NCBI GenBank assembly: GCA_964543385.1
Contig: CAZIYE010000002.1
Span: 64,034-128,033, forward strand
Source of the DNA: an uncultured Candidatus Saccharibacteria bacterium
GTDB taxonomy: Bacteria > Patescibacteriota > UBA1384 > XYA2-FULL-43-10 > 1-14-0-10-43-13
DNA: 64,000 nt
Direction: 5' to 3'
Positions 27,989 to 37,600 of the stretch are shown one piece after another. Position 1 is the first letter of the stretch. Every line of letters starts with the position of its first letter. The position numbers and the translations under genes are program-made. A model generated the notes under the pieces. The model had not been told where the DNA came from and did not search any database. It saw only the letters and a program-made list of their open reading frames with translations.

Positions 27989-28753
27989 TTATGGTCTCAA
28001 GGTTCCTGCAAAAACTTGCCAGGCTAATAGCGATTTTGCCACTAGGCTTAAGATAATATAGGCGCGCTCACCATATAGATAATCACTCCATTTGCCGAGC
28101 TTCTTATACTGCAATACTTGGTTTATGGCAAAGCTATTGAAGAATAAAAATATAGAGAAGTAAATCCAATAGACAAAATTTGGTGCCTTATCTGCACTAC
28201 CTGGATTCCACAAATATATACCAATCGCAATCCATGGACCGATACCAGCGATACAGCCGAATATAAATGATGTCCAATTTGCCTTTGTCGTTGATTGATT
28301 ATGAAGCTCCATCATCCAACCAAATAGAATCATGGTCGCATTTAAAATAATAATTGCAATTAACGCTGAGATATCATAAATGCCTACAAGCATTGCAATA
28401 ACTAGAATCATTATTGACGAGCTAAAGGAATATTCAATCCATCGGGCATAATTAGCTCCTTTGGCCAAATTTTTATTGTACCAATTATTTATTCCTGGTA
28501 ATGAAATTAACAAATGAGCTAAAGAAGAAAGAAATAGAAAAGATGCCACGACTGGTCCAATTTGTAGCTCAAATAAATTTCTAGTGCTTGGCAGTAACTG
28601 TTGTGAGATTACATCGTATTTCAGAAAAGAACCAGTGACGGGTAATTTAAATCCACTTGATACTAGCAACATGGCAATGCCCTGTCCGAAGTGCAAAATG
28701 GCCATTATGATATTAAACCGCCTGAGCTTATAAAATTTTTCTTCTCGATCCAT
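27989..28753 (-). CDS. heliorhodopsin (7-TM retinal protein, inverted topology family)
   Basis: 254 aa with 7 TM helices. Strong matches to heliorhodopsin 48C12 motifs: RWIEYSFSSSIMILVIA (TM3 counterion Glu), NATMILFGW, FGCIAGIGPW, FLFFNSFA, and YGERAYIILSLVAKSLLAWQVFAGTL (Schiff-base Lys in SLVAKS). Strong SD AGGAGG lies upstream. Confidence 0.85.
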   Translation of the reverse strand: MDREEKFYKLRRFNIIMAILHFGQGIAMLLVSSGFKLPVTGSFLKYDVISQQLLPSTRNLFELQIGPVVASFLFLSSLAHLLISLPGINNWYNKNLAKGANYARWIEYSFSSSIMILVIAMLVGIYDISALIAIIILNATMILFGWMMELHNQSTTKANWTSFIFGCIAGIGPWIAIGIYLWNPGSADKAPNFVYWIYFSIFLFFNSFAINQVLQYKKLGKWSDYLYGERAYIILSLVAKSLLAWQVFAGTLRP

Positions 28754-29900: not shown

Positions 29901-29974
29901 TGGCTCGGGGACATGGATTCGAACCATGATTCACGGCTTCAAAGGCCGCTGTCCTGCCATTAGACGATCCCCGA
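29901..29974 (-). tRNA. tRNA-Gln (anticodon UUG)
   Basis: Read on the minus strand: TCGGGGA TC GTCT AATGGCA GGAC A GCGGC CTTTGAA GCCGT GAAT CATGG TTCGAAT CCATG TCCCCGA G CCA. Cloverleaf is complete: 7-bp acceptor stem, GTTCGAAT T-loop, anticodon TTG, encoded CCA. Confidence 0.85.
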
Positions 29975-30490: not shown

Positions 30491-30595
30491 AGGGGTTCCT
30501 CCTTTGTGAGACGGAAGTGCAGCAGTGTAGCTGCGTTGATCAGTATTATATAAGCATTGTTGGCATATGTCAAGTTAAAAATTGGTTTTATATTT

Positions 30596-30985
30596 AAAAC
30601 ACCCCGACAAAAGTCGAGGTGTTACCCCACTGGTTGCCCAGTGAAAGGGCCATATTGTGGGGATAGACTAAAAGTAGATTATAAGCCGGGTTCTGTCAAG
30701 GATGACAATCTATCTAAGCATGGAGACCTTGCATATCCTTCGAGCAGAAGTTGATATGATCGGTCCACTCCACTTGCACCAAACGAGGCTTGCCACGGAC
30801 GCATGTTGCCATACGAACGCGTGAGCTCTTACCTCACGATTTCAACCTTACCGGTTGTAAACAACTTAGGCGGTATATTTTCTGTTGCGCTATTCTCGAA
30901 CCTCACGGCCCGCTCATTTTCACGAGCGTTTTGCTCTATGGTGCCCGGACTTTCCTCCCCGCGTATGTGGGGCTGTCATCACATC
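30596..30985 (-). ncRNA. rnpB: RNase P RNA, bacterial type A
   Basis: Minus strand carries GGGGAGGAAAGTCCGGGCACC (CR-I), GTGAGGTAAGAGCTCAC, TAGAT, and ACAGAACCCGGCTTAT (CR-V, exact match to the consensus). A 3' terminator hairpin (ACCTCGACTTTTGTCGGGGTG + TTTT) follows. GC-rich against the AT-rich genome, as expected for a structural RNA. End coordinates are approximate. Confidence 0.85.
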
Positions 30986-31086
30986 CACTTTTAGCATAAT
31001 AATTATAAATAAAAATGCTATTTTTGTCAACAGATTTGAGCTAGATGCATGATTTGGATATAATGATAGAAATAAATGGAGAAAAA

Positions 31087-31464
31087 ATGAAAAAAAGTAC
31101 AGCGGACATATTAGCGGCTTTATCAGTATTATTAATTATTATTGCCTTCGGTGTATGGTATTTCAGATTTGAGGAAGGTTGGAGTGCTATCGACTCTTTC
31201 TACTTTACTGTTATGACTATGACGTCGGTAGGGTATGGCGATTTTGTACCCACGCACAATGCATCAAAAATTGTTACTGCTTTTTATGCTATGGTTAGTA
31301 TTCCTCTAGTTATTTTCTCTCTGGGGGTAATCGCCAAAAGCTACTTTGAAAAAAGAATTGGCAATATCGAACAGAGAATGTCTGAGATATTAACGAGGGA
31401 AAAGCTATTAGAAGAAGATGTTGAAGAAGCAATCGATGATGGCAAGAAGAGCGAAAAAAAATAA
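31087..31464 (+). CDS. two-TM potassium channel (KcsA-like)
   Basis: Selectivity filter TSVGYGD lies between two TM helices. Start set at MKKST (31087) with GGAG 7 nt upstream; the track starts at 31045. Confidence 0.75.
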   Translation: MKKSTADILAALSVLLIIIAFGVWYFRFEEGWSAIDSFYFTVMTMTSVGYGDFVPTHNASKIVTAFYAMVSIPLVIFSLGVIAKSYFEKRIGNIEQRMSEILTREKLLEEDVEEAIDDGKKSEKK

Positions 31465-31520: not shown

Positions 31521-32078
31521 ATGGAAACGCCAAAAAACATTGTGCGAGCCATCGCTGGAGAAAGTATGGCGAGAAATAAATATACCTTCTTTGCCTCACA
31601 GGCCAAAAAAGAGGGCTATGAACAAATATCAGCAATTTTTCTAGAAACGGCTGATAACGAGAAGGAACATGCTAAAAGGTTGATGAAATTATTAGATGGC
31701 CCAACAGAATCATCTTTGGACAGCTTCGATTTTCCTGTAGTTAAAGGTACTGTAGAAAATCTGGCCGCCGCTGCTGCAGGTGAGAAATATGAAAATACCG
31801 TAATGTATCCTGAGTTTGCCAAAGTTGCGAAAGAAGAAGGATACGACGAAGCCGCAAAGATATTTACTGAAATCGGCGAAGTCGAAGAACATCATGAGGG
31901 TCGTTATTTGAAGCTAAAAGAAAATATAGAAAAGGGGATCGTATTCAAAAGAGACACAGAGGTTTCATGGCGTTGTCGAAATTGTGGCTATGTCCATAAA
32001 GGAACGGACGCTCCGCATATTTGTCCGGCCTGCGCTCACCCACAAGCTCATTACGAGCTTCTCTCTGAAAATTACTAA
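31521..32078 (+). CDS. rubrerythrin
   Basis: Ferritin-like diiron domain followed by a C-terminal rubredoxin-like domain (CRNCGY...CPAC). Confidence 0.9.
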   Translation: METPKNIVRAIAGESMARNKYTFFASQAKKEGYEQISAIFLETADNEKEHAKRLMKLLDGPTESSLDSFDFPVVKGTVENLAAAAAGEKYENTVMYPEFAKVAKEEGYDEAAKIFTEIGEVEEHHEGRYLKLKENIEKGIVFKRDTEVSWRCRNCGYVHKGTDAPHICPACAHPQAHYELLSENY

Positions 32079-32086
32079 ACAATTAA

Positions 32087-32116
32087 TAAAGACCTGCCGA
32101 TGGCAGGTCTTTATTA
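32087..32116. terminator. bidirectional terminator between rubrerythrin and the hydrogenase-like gene
   Basis: aaagacctgcc gatg ggcaggtcttt is a perfect hairpin. Confidence 0.65.
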
Positions 32117-32138
32117 ATATATGGCTAGATCAAATTTT

Positions 32139-32987
32139 CTAGTAACTTGCATCAAAATTAATGTCTTTTTCCAGATCAACATTCCCATTATTCTTTTTTT
32201 CTTTTTCTGCCAACTGACGGTAATCCATTATCCGTCTCTCTTTCTCTTCTCTAGGTAGTTTAGTATTGGCCAAGGCAGGCCCGCCGATACATCCTCCTGG
32301 ACAATTCAAGATATCAAAAAAACGATACTGAGTTGTGCCTGATTTTATTTCATCAAAATGCTTGAATAGATTTTTTGGTTCATCTGTTATGCATATCTCC
32401 GAATCTTTAAAAAAATTCTTCAATAATGCGGTTTGGGCTAAGCCTCCAGAAATTGGATATATTTTTGTGTCTTCCTCATAGAAAGAGTCAAATTGGTAAT
32501 CTTTACCAGATTCCAATATTTTTTTTTCTTCAAGAACTTGTGCCAATTCCTTGAATGTTATAACAAGATTTATTATGTCTTTGTAGAGTGGTGCTTCTAG
32601 TGCTTGTTTTGCCAAACAGGGTGAAACGAACACAATATTGTGGCTAGAATAATATTTTCTAAGTATCTTTGCCATTGCTGCCATTGGAGAAACATGAGGA
32701 ACAAGATATTGGACTAGTTCTGGGTATCTGGACTTAACCAATGATACGCAGGTAGGGCAGGGAGATGTTATATAATATTTTTGATCCGGATGGCTTTTTA
32801 CATATTCCACATAAGAATAATTTACCATTCTGGCGCCAAAGGTCAGTTCGCATACCTTGTCAAATCCCAGCTTTTTAAGAGCTCCAATTATTTGAGGATA
32901 CTCAAAATCAATCGGGAAACTTGGGGCAAGCATACAGATGGAGGGTTTCTTTAGCAGTTCCAATAGTTCTAATTGTCTGGGATTCAT
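32139..32987 (-). CDS. compact [FeFe]-hydrogenase-like protein (H-cluster domain only, variant L1 motif)
   Basis: 282 aa. MLAPSFPIDFEYPQIIGALKKLGFDKVCELTFGA aligns to the start of the H-domain. L1-like ITSPCPTC stands where TSCCP is expected. L2-like SPCLAKQALE stands where MPCxxKxxE is expected. L3-like LNCPGGCIGGP stands where MACxGGCxxGGG is expected. No N-terminal ferredoxin-like domain. Confidence 0.55.
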   Translation of the reverse strand: MNPRQLELLELLKKPSICMLAPSFPIDFEYPQIIGALKKLGFDKVCELTFGARMVNYSYVEYVKSHPDQKYYITSPCPTCVSLVKSRYPELVQYLVPHVSPMAAMAKILRKYYSSHNIVFVSPCLAKQALEAPLYKDIINLVITFKELAQVLEEKKILESGKDYQFDSFYEEDTKIYPISGGLAQTALLKNFFKDSEICITDEPKNLFKHFDEIKSGTTQYRFFDILNCPGGCIGGPALANTKLPREEKERRIMDYRQLAEKEKKNNGNVDLEKDINFDASY

Positions 32988-33088
32988 TTTTGTTTTGTAA
33001 TTTAATTATTATAATTAAATTTTACACAAATCATGTCAATAACAAAAGCCCCTTTTGGGGCTTTTGTTAGATAATCTATATAGTATCC

Positions 33089-33325
33089 TTACTTCTCTGA
33101 CTTTTTTCCTTCGTCTATCAGCTCTTTTACTCTCTGTCCACCCTTATGGCCGATTTCCTGATAGAAGTTTGGACCATATTTATCGCTTGTGGCCTGTCCA
33201 CCTTTTTGTCCACCCTTATGGCCGATTTCCTGATAGAATTCTCTGCCATGAGTTTGACTGGTTTTGCTCCCGCCCTTGCGTCCTGCCTCTTGGACTGTCA
33301 TGCCACTATTTTTTTTCATTGCCAT
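33089..33325 (-). CDS. KGG-repeat stress-induced protein
   Basis: 78 aa with repeated (E/Q)FYQEIGHKGGQ units and an ...EGKKSEK tail. Confidence 0.6.
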   Translation of the reverse strand: MAMKKNSGMTVQEAGRKGGSKTSQTHGREFYQEIGHKGGQKGGQATSDKYGPNFYQEIGHKGGQRVKELIDEGKKSEK

Positions 33326-33353: not shown

Positions 33354-33518
33354 CTATCTTCTCTCTGTGGATTTACCTCGATTGATAAGATCTCTAACTT
33401 TTTGTCCACCCTTATGGCCGATTTCCTGATAGAATTCTCTGCCATGAGTTTGACTGGTTTTGCTCCCGCCCTTGCGTCCTGCCTCTTGCACGGACATTTG
33501 ACCTTTTGGCTCTTTCAT
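33354..33518 (-). CDS. KGG-repeat stress-induced protein (54 aa, short paralog)
   Basis: Hand-translated: MKEPKGQMSVQEAGRKGGSKTSQTHGREFYQEIGHKGGQKVRDLINRGKSTERR. It shares a perfect 91-bp segment with the neighbouring gene. Confidence 0.5.
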   Translation of the reverse strand: MKEPKGQMSVQEAGRKGGSKTSQTHGREFYQEIGHKGGQKVRDLINRGKSTERR

Positions 33519-33581: not shown

Positions 33582-33812
33582 CTATTTCTCGCTTTCCTTG
33601 CCTTCATTGATTAATTCGCGGACCCTTTGTCCTCCTTTGTGGCCGATCTGCTCATAAAACTCGGGGCCATGTTCACGGCTAGTGGTTTCTCCTCCTTTGC
33701 GTCCAATCTGTTGGTAAAAATTATGATCGTGTGTTTCTTTGGTGCGCTCTCCACCTTTCCGTCCTGCATCCTGCACGGACATTTGGCCTTTTTGATTTTG
33801 CATCTCTTTCAC
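33582..33812 (-). CDS. KGG-repeat stress-induced protein
   Basis: 76 aa: MKEMQNQKGQMSVQDAGRKGGERTKETHDHNFYQQIGRKGGETTSREHGPEFYEQIGHKGGQRVRELINEGKESEK. Confidence 0.6.
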   Translation of the reverse strand: MKEMQNQKGQMSVQDAGRKGGERTKETHDHNFYQQIGRKGGETTSREHGPEFYEQIGHKGGQRVRELINEGKESEK

Positions 33813-35511: not shown

Positions 35512-35979
35512 TTAACTAGTTCCTATTTTGGACAAAAGCCAGTTTCTTGAATCTTCTAGAATTTGTCTAGTTTCCTTGTAGGTGATCTTTTCAAGTGCAT
35601 TCTCATATGTTAGCCATTTGGCATCAGTAATTTCTTTCCCATCAATTTTGATCTCAAGGTTCTCGCAAAAACAAGGGAAAAATTTGACAGTTTTATCTAC
35701 CATTGTGCCGTGGTCATTCCAGCTATATTTTTCTATGAAATAAGTATCGGTAATTATCTTGAGAGGTCTTATCCCGGTCTCTTCGTAAAGTTCTCTTTCT
35801 GCTGTTTCAATTTCTGTTTCGCCAACCTCGGGATGTCCCTTTGGAAAGCTCCAAAATTGTCCATATTGTTCTATCAACAAAAAATAGATAGTACTTGGAT
35901 CTTTATATTTTTGAAATATTGGCACAACGCCGTAAGAGAAATCCTTCATATTAGTGGAGGACCTCGCCTTCGCCGTCAT
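35512..35979 (-). CDS. Nudix hydrolase
   Basis: Nudix box GHPEVGETEIETAERELYEETGI. Overlaps the upstream histidine kinase gene by 29 nt on the same strand. Confidence 0.8.
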   Translation of the reverse strand: MTAKARSSTNMKDFSYGVVPIFQKYKDPSTIYFLLIEQYGQFWSFPKGHPEVGETEIETAERELYEETGIRPLKIITDTYFIEKYSWNDHGTMVDKTVKFFPCFCENLEIKIDGKEITDAKWLTYENALEKITYKETRQILEDSRNWLLSKIGTS

Positions 35980-37600
35980 GGGCGTCGTAAGGCTTTTTAC
36001 TTAGAATTGGCATCGAGAAAAAGAAGGTTGTGCCTTTGTCAGCGCCATCGGAGTGAAACCAAATTTTACCTTTTTGCAATTCAACAAATTTCTTAGATAT
36101 ATACATGCCAAGTCCGGTGCCCTTGACTTCGTCTTTAAGCACATCTACCTGAGTGAATTTCTCAAAGACTGCCTGCTGGCGATCTTTTGGTATTCCCTTG
36201 CCATTATCCTCAACCGATATAACGATTTTTTGATCATCGTTCATAACTCTGACGACTATTTTGCCGCCATCGGGAGTGTATTTTATCGAGTTTCCGATGA
36301 CATTAATAAGTACTTCAGTAATACGAGTAACGTCAAACCAAGTAGGTGGCATTTTGTGCTTAGGCTCTTCGAAAGTCAGTGTATGTTTGGCTTCTCGTGC
36401 CTTCGACATCACTTCAGTGATTGCTTGACTTATAACATCCTCGACAGGCTTTTGTTCCCAGATGATATGGATTCGTCCAGACTCAATCCTGGAGACATTT
36501 AGGAGGTCTTTTACCATATTTGCAAGCCTTGTAGCGGATTGAAATACGCTATCGAGGTAAGTGCGAGCTTTATCAGGGATCTTGCCACCAAGACCCTCGA
36601 TCAAAATCATAGAAAGGTAACCCTTGATCGCAGCGATAGGGGTATTGAGTTCATGCGATGCCATGGACAAAAAGTCATCTTTCAATTTATCCACTTCCTT
36701 TAGATGATCATTGGCAGTCTCAAGATCTTTGGCAAGTTTTTGAATTTGTTCTCGACGTTTTATTTCCTGCTTGACAGACTTAATAAGTAAATATCCACCA
36801 ATGGAAACCAAACAAAAGATTGTTGCATTGATCAAAAATTGGTTAAACGTTTTCGATAATATAGTTTGAGTTCCTATGGCAATAATTACGATTATAGCAC
36901 TGGCTTCTGTTAAAATTACTTTTATATCAAAAAGTCCCTTTGCTACCATTGCATAGGTTGTGAATCCAACAAATGGTAGAACGAAATATGTGCCGAGGTA
37001 TACAAAATTATCGAGCTTAAATACCAAAACGAGTATGAGATTAAAGAATATCATTAAAAAGAACATTGATGAAACTCCAGTAAAGATAAATTTTATTTGT
37101 TCTCTTATAAAACCTTCGGCCTTTAGAAATTTTTTTATTAATAAATAAAATCCTGTTCCTATAGAACCAACTGCAGTAACTAGAAACAGTAACATGCCAG
37201 GGCCAACTTTTGGGCTTCTAGTATTGTTCACGGCATCGATTTCAACTCCAGGGAAGAATATAGGGGACATCACAACCGCAATAGTTGCAACAACTACGAT
37301 GGAATAAATAAAATAAAATTTACGTTTAAATGGCAGTTTTCCCTCTGGGAAAGCTTGAGCAAATAGAAAGAAAAAAACGGACTGAAGTACAGCGAAAACC
37401 ATTACTAATCGCATGAGAATTAAAATAGTATTATAATCTTGGGCAAGCACAGAAAAATAATTTGAAACAGACCATAAAACTAGTGAAAGGGTCAAGTAAA
37501 AAAATAAAGTTCTTAGGGTTTTGTTTTTGGACTTTGTTAATGCAATTATGCCCAGGACTAGATTTAGGGCTGCACCCAGAATAAGTATCAGCGCGTTCAT
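35951..37600 (-). CDS. membrane sensor histidine kinase (polytopic N-terminal sensor + HisKA + HATPase_c)
   Basis: 549 aa with about 8 N-terminal TM helices, a coiled-coil linker, H-box SHELNTPIAAIKGY and G-boxes DNGKGIP and GTGLGMYISKKF. Confidence 0.8.
   Translation of the reverse strand: MNALILILGAALNLVLGIIALTKSKNKTLRTLFFYLTLSLVLWSVSNYFSVLAQDYNTILILMRLVMVFAVLQSVFFFLFAQAFPEGKLPFKRKFYFIYSIVVVATIAVVMSPIFFPGVEIDAVNNTRSPKVGPGMLLFLVTAVGSIGTGFYLLIKKFLKAEGFIREQIKFIFTGVSSMFFLMIFFNLILVLVFKLDNFVYLGTYFVLPFVGFTTYAMVAKGLFDIKVILTEASAIIVIIAIGTQTILSKTFNQFLINATIFCLVSIGGYLLIKSVKQEIKRREQIQKLAKDLETANDHLKEVDKLKDDFLSMASHELNTPIAAIKGYLSMILIEGLGGKIPDKARTYLDSVFQSATRLANMVKDLLNVSRIESGRIHIIWEQKPVEDVISQAITEVMSKAREAKHTLTFEEPKHKMPPTWFDVTRITEVLINVIGNSIKYTPDGGKIVVRVMNDDQKIVISVEDNGKGIPKDRQQAVFEKFTQVDVLKDEVKGTGLGMYISKKFVELQKGKIWFHSDGADKGTTFFFSMPILSKKPYDAHDGEGEVLH

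Follow-up and report, generated by a model that had tools for sequence, protein, structure and literature searches.

The locus and the predicted protein

A stand-alone gene for a protein resembling the catalytic domain of [FeFe] hydrogenases lies at 32139..32987 on the minus strand of a 64,000-nucleotide stretch of contig CAZIYE010000002.1 (assembly GCA_964543385.1, positions 64,034 to 128,033), which comes from an uncultured Candidatus Saccharibacteria bacterium and is called the window here. The product starts with ATG and has 282 amino acids (aa), a mass of 32.4 kDa and eight cysteines. The gene is annotated as an ultraminimal, [FeFe]-hydrogenase-like H-cluster-domain protein on the basis of its open reading frame (ORF), a match to PF02906, the predicted fold and 495 homologues. 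The protein very probably belongs to an ultraminimal branch related to hydrogenase groups C and E, and the evidence for this placement and for its possible function is presented below.

In a Pfam scan the sole domain of the 282-aa protein was Fe_hyd_lg_C (PF02906; E 9.9e-43, 147 bits against a cut-off of 22.1), and residues 17-237 covered positions 4-245 of the 245 profile positions. The significant sequence matches found in PDB with HMMER were [FeFe] hydrogenases without exception (E to 1.4e-20). An AlphaFold2 (AF2) model was built from an alignment of 82 sequences and was confident (predicted local distance difference test, pLDDT, 92.8; predicted TM-score, pTM, 0.90), and its full-length Foldseek matches in PDB were hydrogenase H-domains only (E to 1e-17, query TM-score, TMq, 0.75-0.80). 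In the model the H-domain fold appears with shortened loops, and the protein is about 170 residues shorter than CrHydA1. Pfam and motif scans of the protein gave no Fer4 domain or motif, the domain being preceded by 16 residues only, and Pfam gave no match to Fe_hyd_SSU (PF02256) or to a small-subunit-like C-terminal region. The original prediction, made from the letters of the DNA, had described an H-cluster-domain protein shorter than standard H-domains and free of a ferredoxin-like N-terminal domain, and the significant match along nearly the whole Fe_hyd_lg_C profile, the fold and the domain scans all agree with that description.

Two other explanations of the gene were considered and rejected. 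A pseudogene or decaying remnant is not indicated because the ORF is intact and identity among family members reaches at least 95% at 70 of its 282 positions, and a horizontal-transfer island is not indicated because the guanine plus cytosine (GC) content is unremarkable, the window having about 37% GC without a compositional anomaly at the hydrogenase-like gene.

The gene looks monocistronic, with a promoter-like site of its own and terminators on both sides. Three tandem small genes (33089..33325, 33354..33518 and 33582..33812, minus strand) lie between it and a PolB-exonuclease-like gene; they encode stress-induced KGG-repeat (PF10685) proteins whose repeat units are nearly identical. The preceding KGG gene is closed by a hairpin seen in the sequence, AAAAGCCCC-AAAA-GGGGCTTTT, at about 33044-33066, just upstream of a sigma-70-like promoter candidate (TTGACA-17 nt-AATTAT, 33011..33039, minus strand), which is a consensus match only, with 10 of 12 positions matching, and stands 24 nt upstream of the ATG. 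At its other end the hydrogenase-like gene is convergent, across a 60-bp spacer, with a rubrerythrin gene (31521..32078, plus strand; NF045767 260 bits, PF02915, PF21349) whose product combines a ferritin-like di-iron domain with a C-terminal rubredoxin-like domain. As had been predicted, the two genes share a terminator: it is a bidirectional intrinsic terminator at 32082..32118, a perfectly palindromic hairpin with a 17-bp stem and A/T runs on both sides (free energy -26.3 kcal/mol, z -7.5).

Residues of the predicted H-cluster site

The motifs, all encoded on the minus strand, were placed in the register of the enzyme CpI from HMMER alignments in which chain numbering equals CpI numbering. 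Homologues were searched in 5.8 billion proteins, and all conservation counts for the family refer to the best 120 of the 495 homologues found. The four cysteines C77, C124, C229 and C233 stand in register with CpI C300, C355, C499 and C503 and are invariant in the 120 homologues; the retention of the cubane and bridging cysteines, and the presence of Pro in place of the relay Cys of the first motif, had both been noted correctly from the sequence. That first motif, L1, reads TSPCP (32754..32768), in which P76 takes the position of CpI C299, the proton relay, in 119 of 120 proteins, and C77, the cubane ligand, is found in all of them. The L2 motif SPCLAKQALE (32595..32624) aligns S122 with M353, C124 with C355 and K127 with K358, followed by E131, and C124, K127 and E131 are invariant. 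In the L3 motif CPGGCIGGP (32277..32303), C229 is a cubane ligand and C233 the bridging ligand, and the residue L227, equivalent to M497, precedes the motif.

Two further segments complete the site. At 32442..32459 the sequence YPISGG aligns Y177 with CpI F417 (a Tyr like Y223 of TmHydS) and G181-G182 with G421-G422; Y177 is present in 118 of 120 proteins and P178, S180, G181 and G182 in all. Near the N-terminus, A21-P22-S23 (32919..32927) corresponds by profile alignment to APA(VR) of T. maritima HydA, and A21 and P22 are invariant. The APxVR motif provides a hydrogen bond to a CN ligand of the [2Fe] subsite. Positions S100, P101, P123, L183, L227 and N228 are also without variation in the 120 proteins. 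The equivalents of residues lining the [2Fe] subsite, namely A21, P22, P101, K127, Y177, L183 and L227, are some of the family's best-conserved positions, and the 70 positions of at least 95% identity include 8 of the 11 that were mapped to CpI [2Fe]-subsite contacts (hypergeometric P 9e-4). To judge from these alignments, the family is under strong purifying selection.

The canonical relay of CpI is a different matter, as C299, E279, E282, R286 and S319 correspond to P76, S58, E61, S65 and V96, of which only P76 is conserved in the family. The position of CpI Q325 is occupied by Met and CpI P324 is kept. A group D-type proton pathway (E252/E289 of TamHydS) had no reliable mapping onto the protein and is not claimed. 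No conserved Cys beyond the four H-cluster ligands was found among the 120 closest homologues; therefore one [4Fe-4S] cluster is possible and an accessory cluster is excluded.

The family in Patescibacteria and its archaeal relatives

The best 120 homologues are all single-domain proteins of 268-313 aa, and those among them with an organism name come from Patescibacteria, also called the Candidate Phyla Radiation (CPR), throughout (Berkel-, Moran-, Parcu- and Staskawiczbacteria). A scan of GTDB species genomes agrees with this host range and adds Buchananbacteria; less closely related short proteins occur in Gottesman- and Roizmanbacteria. The literature searched gave no description of a short [FeFe] family in CPR/Patescibacteria, nor of the TSPCP motif. 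Pro at the relay position is, as far as the alignments tell, the norm in the Patescibacterial family and gives no sign of lost function.

Some metagenome-assembled genome (MAG) records of the TPA_asm type that hold a CPR-type gene (L012, L019, L022, L024, L032, L033, L035 and others) are titled 'uncultured Gammaproteobacteria', 'Bdellovibrionales' or 'Saccharibacteria'; such titles look unreliable and are unfit for inferring the host range of the family. The Staskawiczbacteria MAG MFD02138.bin.1.79 (L018, L030) apparently has two family copies, one of full length and the other a 47%-identical match at a contig end.

Outside the bacteria, the GTDB scan gave a match in a Woesearchaeota archaeon with 43% identity, and this protein also reads ISSPCP. 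When it was used as a query, 854 proteins were found, and the best 120 of these are all single-domain proteins of 269-289 aa, the named ones belonging to Nanoarchaeota, Pacearchaeota or 'archaeon', that is, to DPANN archaea. Among these 120 the relay position holds Val in about 85 (SSVCP and relatives), Pro in 22, Ala in 8 and Cys in none. The CPR family and this DPANN family of about 278 aa were aligned by hhalign with a probability of 100% (E 3e-79, 269 columns, 39% identity). The aligned part begins close to the N-terminus, reaches the C-terminal tail and has indels of 1-3 residues only; an end-to-end match with such small indels means that both families share the same complete condensed architecture. 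On average the window protein shares 56% identity with CPR members; the figure falls to 40% for the DPANN family and to 30% for multidomain H-domains.

Placement among the hydrogenase groups

Group E, the 'ultraminimal' [FeFe] hydrogenases, was defined by Greening et al. (Cell 2024, PMC11216029) as a monophyletic group encoded by DPANN archaea and sister to group C, whose members consist of the H-domain only, have a mean length of 286 residues and keep the ligating cysteines complete, with proton-transfer residues that differ (PMC11216029). Patescibacteria go unmentioned in that paper. The DPANN family recovered here fits the published group E by taxon, length, architecture and tree position.

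The likeness between the window protein and group E is extensive. Both consist of the H-domain only, with 280-290 aa, about 33 kDa, four conserved cysteines and a single [4Fe-4S]H without accessory clusters; both have shortened loops, the same C-terminal tail and a relay position without Cys, the motifs LAPSF..DF, TKIYPxSGG and CxGGCIGGP are held in common, and the relation to group C is probably a sister one in both. The hosts in both cases are ultra-small genome-reduced symbionts, and maturases were not found, for the CPR family within the 64-kb window and, as to HydE and HydG, within 8 kb of the gene in 33 related loci. Group E was defined on archaeal DPANN hosts, whereas the host of the window family is bacterial, and the family forms its own bacterial clade with about 40% identity to the DPANN proteins. 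Pro is near-invariant at the C299 position, where the DPANN family mostly has Val (counted in 71 of 120), L2 reads PCxAKxxxE with one residue more before the conserved Glu than the archaeal PCxxKKxE, and the additional Cys that the archaeal proteins have in a GGPC motif is absent.

Trees were built by neighbour-joining (NJ) on about 275 columns and rooted on three group A sequences, and are simple distance trees. A clade of the CPR family, the DPANN family and other short proteins was free of multidomain sequences in 84 of 100 bootstraps, and the CPR and DPANN families were separate, with no interleaving, in all 100. Exact-clade bootstraps were low (49, 38 and 8 of 100) because short fragmentary representatives shift around; support for the placement was measured in their place by whether any multidomain sequence enters the CPR and DPANN clade. 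On the sequence evidence, the Patescibacterial family is probably a bacterial sister to the archaeal group E enzymes, related to the group C H-domain.

The relation to group C was seen in an exhaustive HMMER scan of 1.84 billion representative proteins, which gave 2447 relatives, with other short proteins (256-316 aa) first and then proteins of 560-830 aa. In the latter the homologous region lies at about residues 70-320, after a 2x[4Fe-4S] ferredoxin domain, and is followed by a PF04060 FeS module together with PAS, HisKA/HATPase, GGDEF, MCP or sigma-54 activator domains, which is how the sensory group C hydrogenases are built. Many of these multidomain relatives carry xxPCP or xxACP, not TSCCP. 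In group C as a whole Cys occupies the C299 position in 17% of sequences; Ala is commoner (about 43%), and Pro and Ser account for about 10% each. The M353 position holds Gly, Ser (32%) or Thr, and the F417 position Tyr (PMC10055695). Since these frequencies agree with P76, S122 and Y177, the three residues represent an ordinary signature of the C/E branch. TmHydS of T. maritima, a group C enzyme with Ala at the C299 position, is active, and its activity is lowered when Cys is introduced (PMC10055695). The relay Cys is thus dispensable in the C/E branch, as follows from the Val, Pro and Ala of the DPANN proteins, the 17% of Cys in group C and the active TmHydS.

The window protein accordingly resembles group C in its non-Cys residue at 299, small residue at 353 and Tyr at 417 and in the absence of the canonical proton pathway (PMC10055695), and group C proteins, with about 30% identity over the H-domain, are its best multidomain matches. 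It departs from group C in having neither the N-terminal 2x[4Fe-4S] ferredoxin nor the PF04060 FeS module nor a PAS or other signalling output, and in standing outside the multidomain clade in the 84 of 100 bootstraps given above. The group C second-sphere signature is therefore present in a protein of a single domain, and in its size (282 aa), H-domain-only architecture and four conserved cysteines the protein corresponds to group E.

Groups A and B are more distant. With group A (CpI) the protein has in common the H-domain fold (TMq about 0.78 to CpI), the four H-cluster Cys ligands, K358, P324 and the APx motif, and like CrHydA1, the minimal M1 form, it has no accessory clusters. It differs from group A in its identity of about 24%, in TSPCP for TSCCP, in the lack of conservation at E279, E282, R286 and S319, in Ser, Leu and Met at the positions of M353, M497 and Q325, and in the absence of a PF02256-type C-terminal region; TIGR02512 gives 85.6 bits against a cut-off of 405.95. 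For group B, TIGR04105 gives 132.9 bits against a cut-off of 450, over model positions 222-460 only, and the Fer4 domain is absent.

Among the relatives, one predicted protein of 4122 aa (P0126) contains seven tandem Fe_hyd_lg_C and Fe_hyd_SSU units, three flavodoxin domains and FAD_binding_1. A giant poly-hydrogenase-CysJ fusion is one possible reading of it, a concatenated gene model the other.

Neighbourhood in related genomes

The window was clustered by gene neighbourhood together with 33 related CPR loci, that is, over 34 loci. Rubrerythrin is directly adjacent to the hydrogenase-like gene in three of them, the window, L001 (with an 82% identical protein) and L007 (a Berkelbacteria MAG, 54%), and lies within 6 kb in a fourth. 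The two genes are convergent in the window and in L001, and in L007 rubrerythrin is co-directional, 35 bp downstream. As these loci share flanking genes, the adjacency may be inherited synteny. The arrangement is suggestive of rubrerythrin as a possible, unproven redox partner, the adjacency being limited to one syntenic lineage. The KGG genes are absent at the same spot in the syntenic L001 and L007.

A second arrangement was found in the Staskawiczbacteria-type loci (L005, L014, L016, L023, L026, L034, L036 and L046), where a thioredoxin (TIGR01068) and a 90-aa protein like the catalytic subunit of ferredoxin-thioredoxin reductase (FTR) are encoded 1-2 kb upstream on the same strand. The FTR-like protein matches PF02943 (E 4.8e-24) and shows CPC...CPC...CxC. 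The pair is separated from the hydrogenase-like gene by Obg and a small membrane protein, and is a possible alternative redox partner.

HydE and HydG, two of the maturases of the H-cluster, require the radical-SAM (S-adenosylmethionine) motif CX3CX2C. Radical-SAM proteins encoded near the gene in the related loci were examined as candidates for these maturases and rejected, being a generic SPASM-type enzyme, a pyruvate formate-lyase (PFL) activase and a 'mobile pair B' protein. The activase (TIGR02493, 291 bits) is encoded at L012 13903..14628, about 3 kb from the hydrogenase-like gene, and hints at glycyl-radical fermentation in that organism.

Proposed function and alternatives

The reading towards which we lean, at little better than even confidence, is that the window protein is a low-turnover single-cluster hydrogenase, which would bind a complete H-cluster and interconvert H+ and H2 at modest rates by a non-canonical proton route. 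A small soluble carrier would give electrons to the exposed [4Fe-4S]H, or take them from it, without an intermediate, which is how algal HydA1 works and what has been proposed for group E. Protons would reach the azadithiolate amine via water or solvent or by another unmapped route, as argued for TmHydS and group E; a non-canonical delivery is supposed because the canonical relay is absent. In an ultra-small bacterium living by fermentation, the enzyme may serve to dispose of reducing equivalents (or to take them up). Maturation of the H-cluster in vivo would be part of the proposal and is unproven for the CPR protein.

An experimental parallel is the group E enzyme Fm of 'Ca. Forterrea multitransposorum', a protein of 33 kDa with one [4Fe-4S] cluster, which upon insertion of a synthetic [2Fe]adt shows the Fourier-transform infrared (FTIR) bands of an H-cluster and works in both directions in vitro, H2 production being favoured (PMC11216029). 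The original prediction had taken the Pro of TSPCP, among other features, to suggest a derivative rather than a catalytic hydrogenase. This does not follow, since a group E member binds the H-cluster and evolves H2, the relay position is never Cys in the DPANN proteins counted above, and TmHydS is active.

Several points weigh against a hydrogenase function. Fm was active only after artificial maturation, and in vivo assembly of the H-cluster is unproven even for group E (PMC11216029). No ORF of at least 60 aa in the 64-kb window has the radical-SAM CX3CX2C motif or the HydF-type CxH...HCxxC motif, so the predicted absence of HydE, HydF and HydG from the window held, and the three ORFs with a radical-SAM motif within 8 kb of the gene in the 33 related CPR loci include no HydE or HydG. 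This absence is weak evidence because 64 kb covers little of a genome and because published group E genomes lack these genes too: HydEFG is absent from most of them, the closed Fm genome included (PMC11216029). Leu is invariant at the M497 position (L227), where the exchange M497L in a prototypical enzyme blocks the proper integration of the [2Fe] subsite (cited in PMC10055695). No operon is conserved across the family in the 34 loci, and the surroundings of the gene encode no ferredoxin, pyruvate:ferredoxin oxidoreductase (PFOR) or other evident redox partner. The placement itself comes from NJ trees on about 275 columns, and the DPANN family is equated with group E by taxon, length, architecture and tree position.

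Some of the same observations favour a rather unlikely but serious alternative, in which the protein is a [4Fe-4S]-only redox protein, that is, a small Fe-S electron carrier or an O2- or redox-sensitive switch, feeding for example the rubrerythrin peroxidase in an oxidative-stress module. It would receive no di-iron subsite because the organism would lack HydEFG, in line with the missing maturase motifs in the window and near the gene in the 33 loci, and the invariant Leu at the M497 position would suit such a protein (PMC10055695). Rubrerythrin adjoins the gene in the window, L001 and L007, an adjacency that has outlasted an inversion of the rbr gene; the three KGG stress-protein genes stand on the opposite side of the hydrogenase-like gene, and the thioredoxin and FTR-like pair lies 1-2 kb upstream in other CPR lineages. 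Against this, rubrerythrin adjacency is confined to 3 of 34 loci with shared flanking genes and may be a matter of inherited synteny, and the archaeal sister enzyme takes up [2Fe]adt and turns over (PMC11216029). Moreover, the residues that contact only the [2Fe] subsite (A21, P22, P101, K127, Y177, L183 and L227) are invariant, Y177 nearly so, over about 50% divergence, which is hard to explain without a bound subsite.

A stand-alone H2 sensor, a 'split' group C hydrogenase with a bound H-cluster and slow turnover that would signal H2 or redox state to a separate kinase or regulator, is improbable. The original prediction had offered a sensory derivative, and it was right to the extent that the active site carries a group C signature and that the nearest multidomain relatives are fused to PAS, HisKA, GGDEF, MCP or sigma-54 modules. 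A 7TM-HisKA histidine kinase gene (35951..37600, minus strand) is situated 3 kb away. A role as sensor is made less likely by the protein itself, which lacks an output domain as well as the C-terminal FeS (PF04060) and PAS modules by which group C is defined, and which groups with the fermentative-type ultraminimal clade of the DPANN proteins and not inside group C (84 of 100 bootstraps). In addition, no signalling gene recurs beside members of the family in the 34 loci, and ultra-small genomes have few regulators.

A Nar1/NARF-like assembly factor, that is, a hydrogenase-derived scaffold with a [4Fe-4S] cluster only that acts in Fe-S protein maturation, had also been put forward, but despite the common Fe_hyd_lg_C homology, the local absence of maturases and the possible lack of a di-iron subsite if maturation does not occur, it is very improbable, given that the defining N-terminal four-Cys cluster domain of Nar1/NARFL is absent (16 residues precede the domain and hold no conserved Cys motif), the host is bacterial with no evident context of the cytosolic iron-sulfur assembly (CIA) pathway, and the closest relatives are groups E and C and not eukaryotic group-A-derived proteins.

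Significance of the findings

Group E was introduced in 2024 as a peculiarity of DPANN archaea, and a probable sister family, alike in size and architecture, is now found to be widespread and strongly conserved in Patescibacteria. The window protein is a bacterial member of a recently described ultraminimal kind and not a new kind. The smallest known hydrogenase scaffold is hereby extended to bacteria, and a second, independent set of genome-reduced organisms becomes available for asking how the H-cluster forms without HydEFG, a question posed by the authors of group E (PMC11216029). The Pro, Val and Ala found at the relay position provide a natural series for the study of non-canonical proton delivery. 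The loss of the TSCCP Cys is the rule in the C/E branch and, taken alone, is no sign that a protein lacks catalytic activity.

A broader and more doubtful idea joins these results. CPR and DPANN may share an ancient or laterally exchanged clade of hydrogenases of about 280 residues that work without HydEFG, either by an unknown simpler (or host-scavenged) route to the di-iron subsite or as re-purposed single-cluster redox modules. The module of the window would then be wired to rubrerythrin for H2- or reductant-driven detoxification of peroxide, and that of Staskawiczbacteria to the FTR-like and thioredoxin pair. On balance we regard this combined picture as unlikely, somewhat more so than the [4Fe-4S]-only redox protein.

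Other features of the window

Several other genes were identified around the hydrogenase-like gene. A heliorhodopsin of 254 aa (PF18761, E 1.5e-103) is encoded at 27989..28753 on the minus strand, 3.4 kb away, and a NUDIX hydrolase at 35512..35979, also on the minus strand. A minimal K+ channel of 139 aa with the Ion_trans_2 domain and two transmembrane segments is encoded at 31045..31464 on the plus strand. A tRNA gene lies at 29904..29974 and the gene for RNase P RNA, of bacterial class A (186.6 bits), at 30666..30992, both on the minus strand. Among the ORFs listed over 30557-31052, several overlap the RNase P gene and are spurious, and the class A RNA identifies the window as bacterial.

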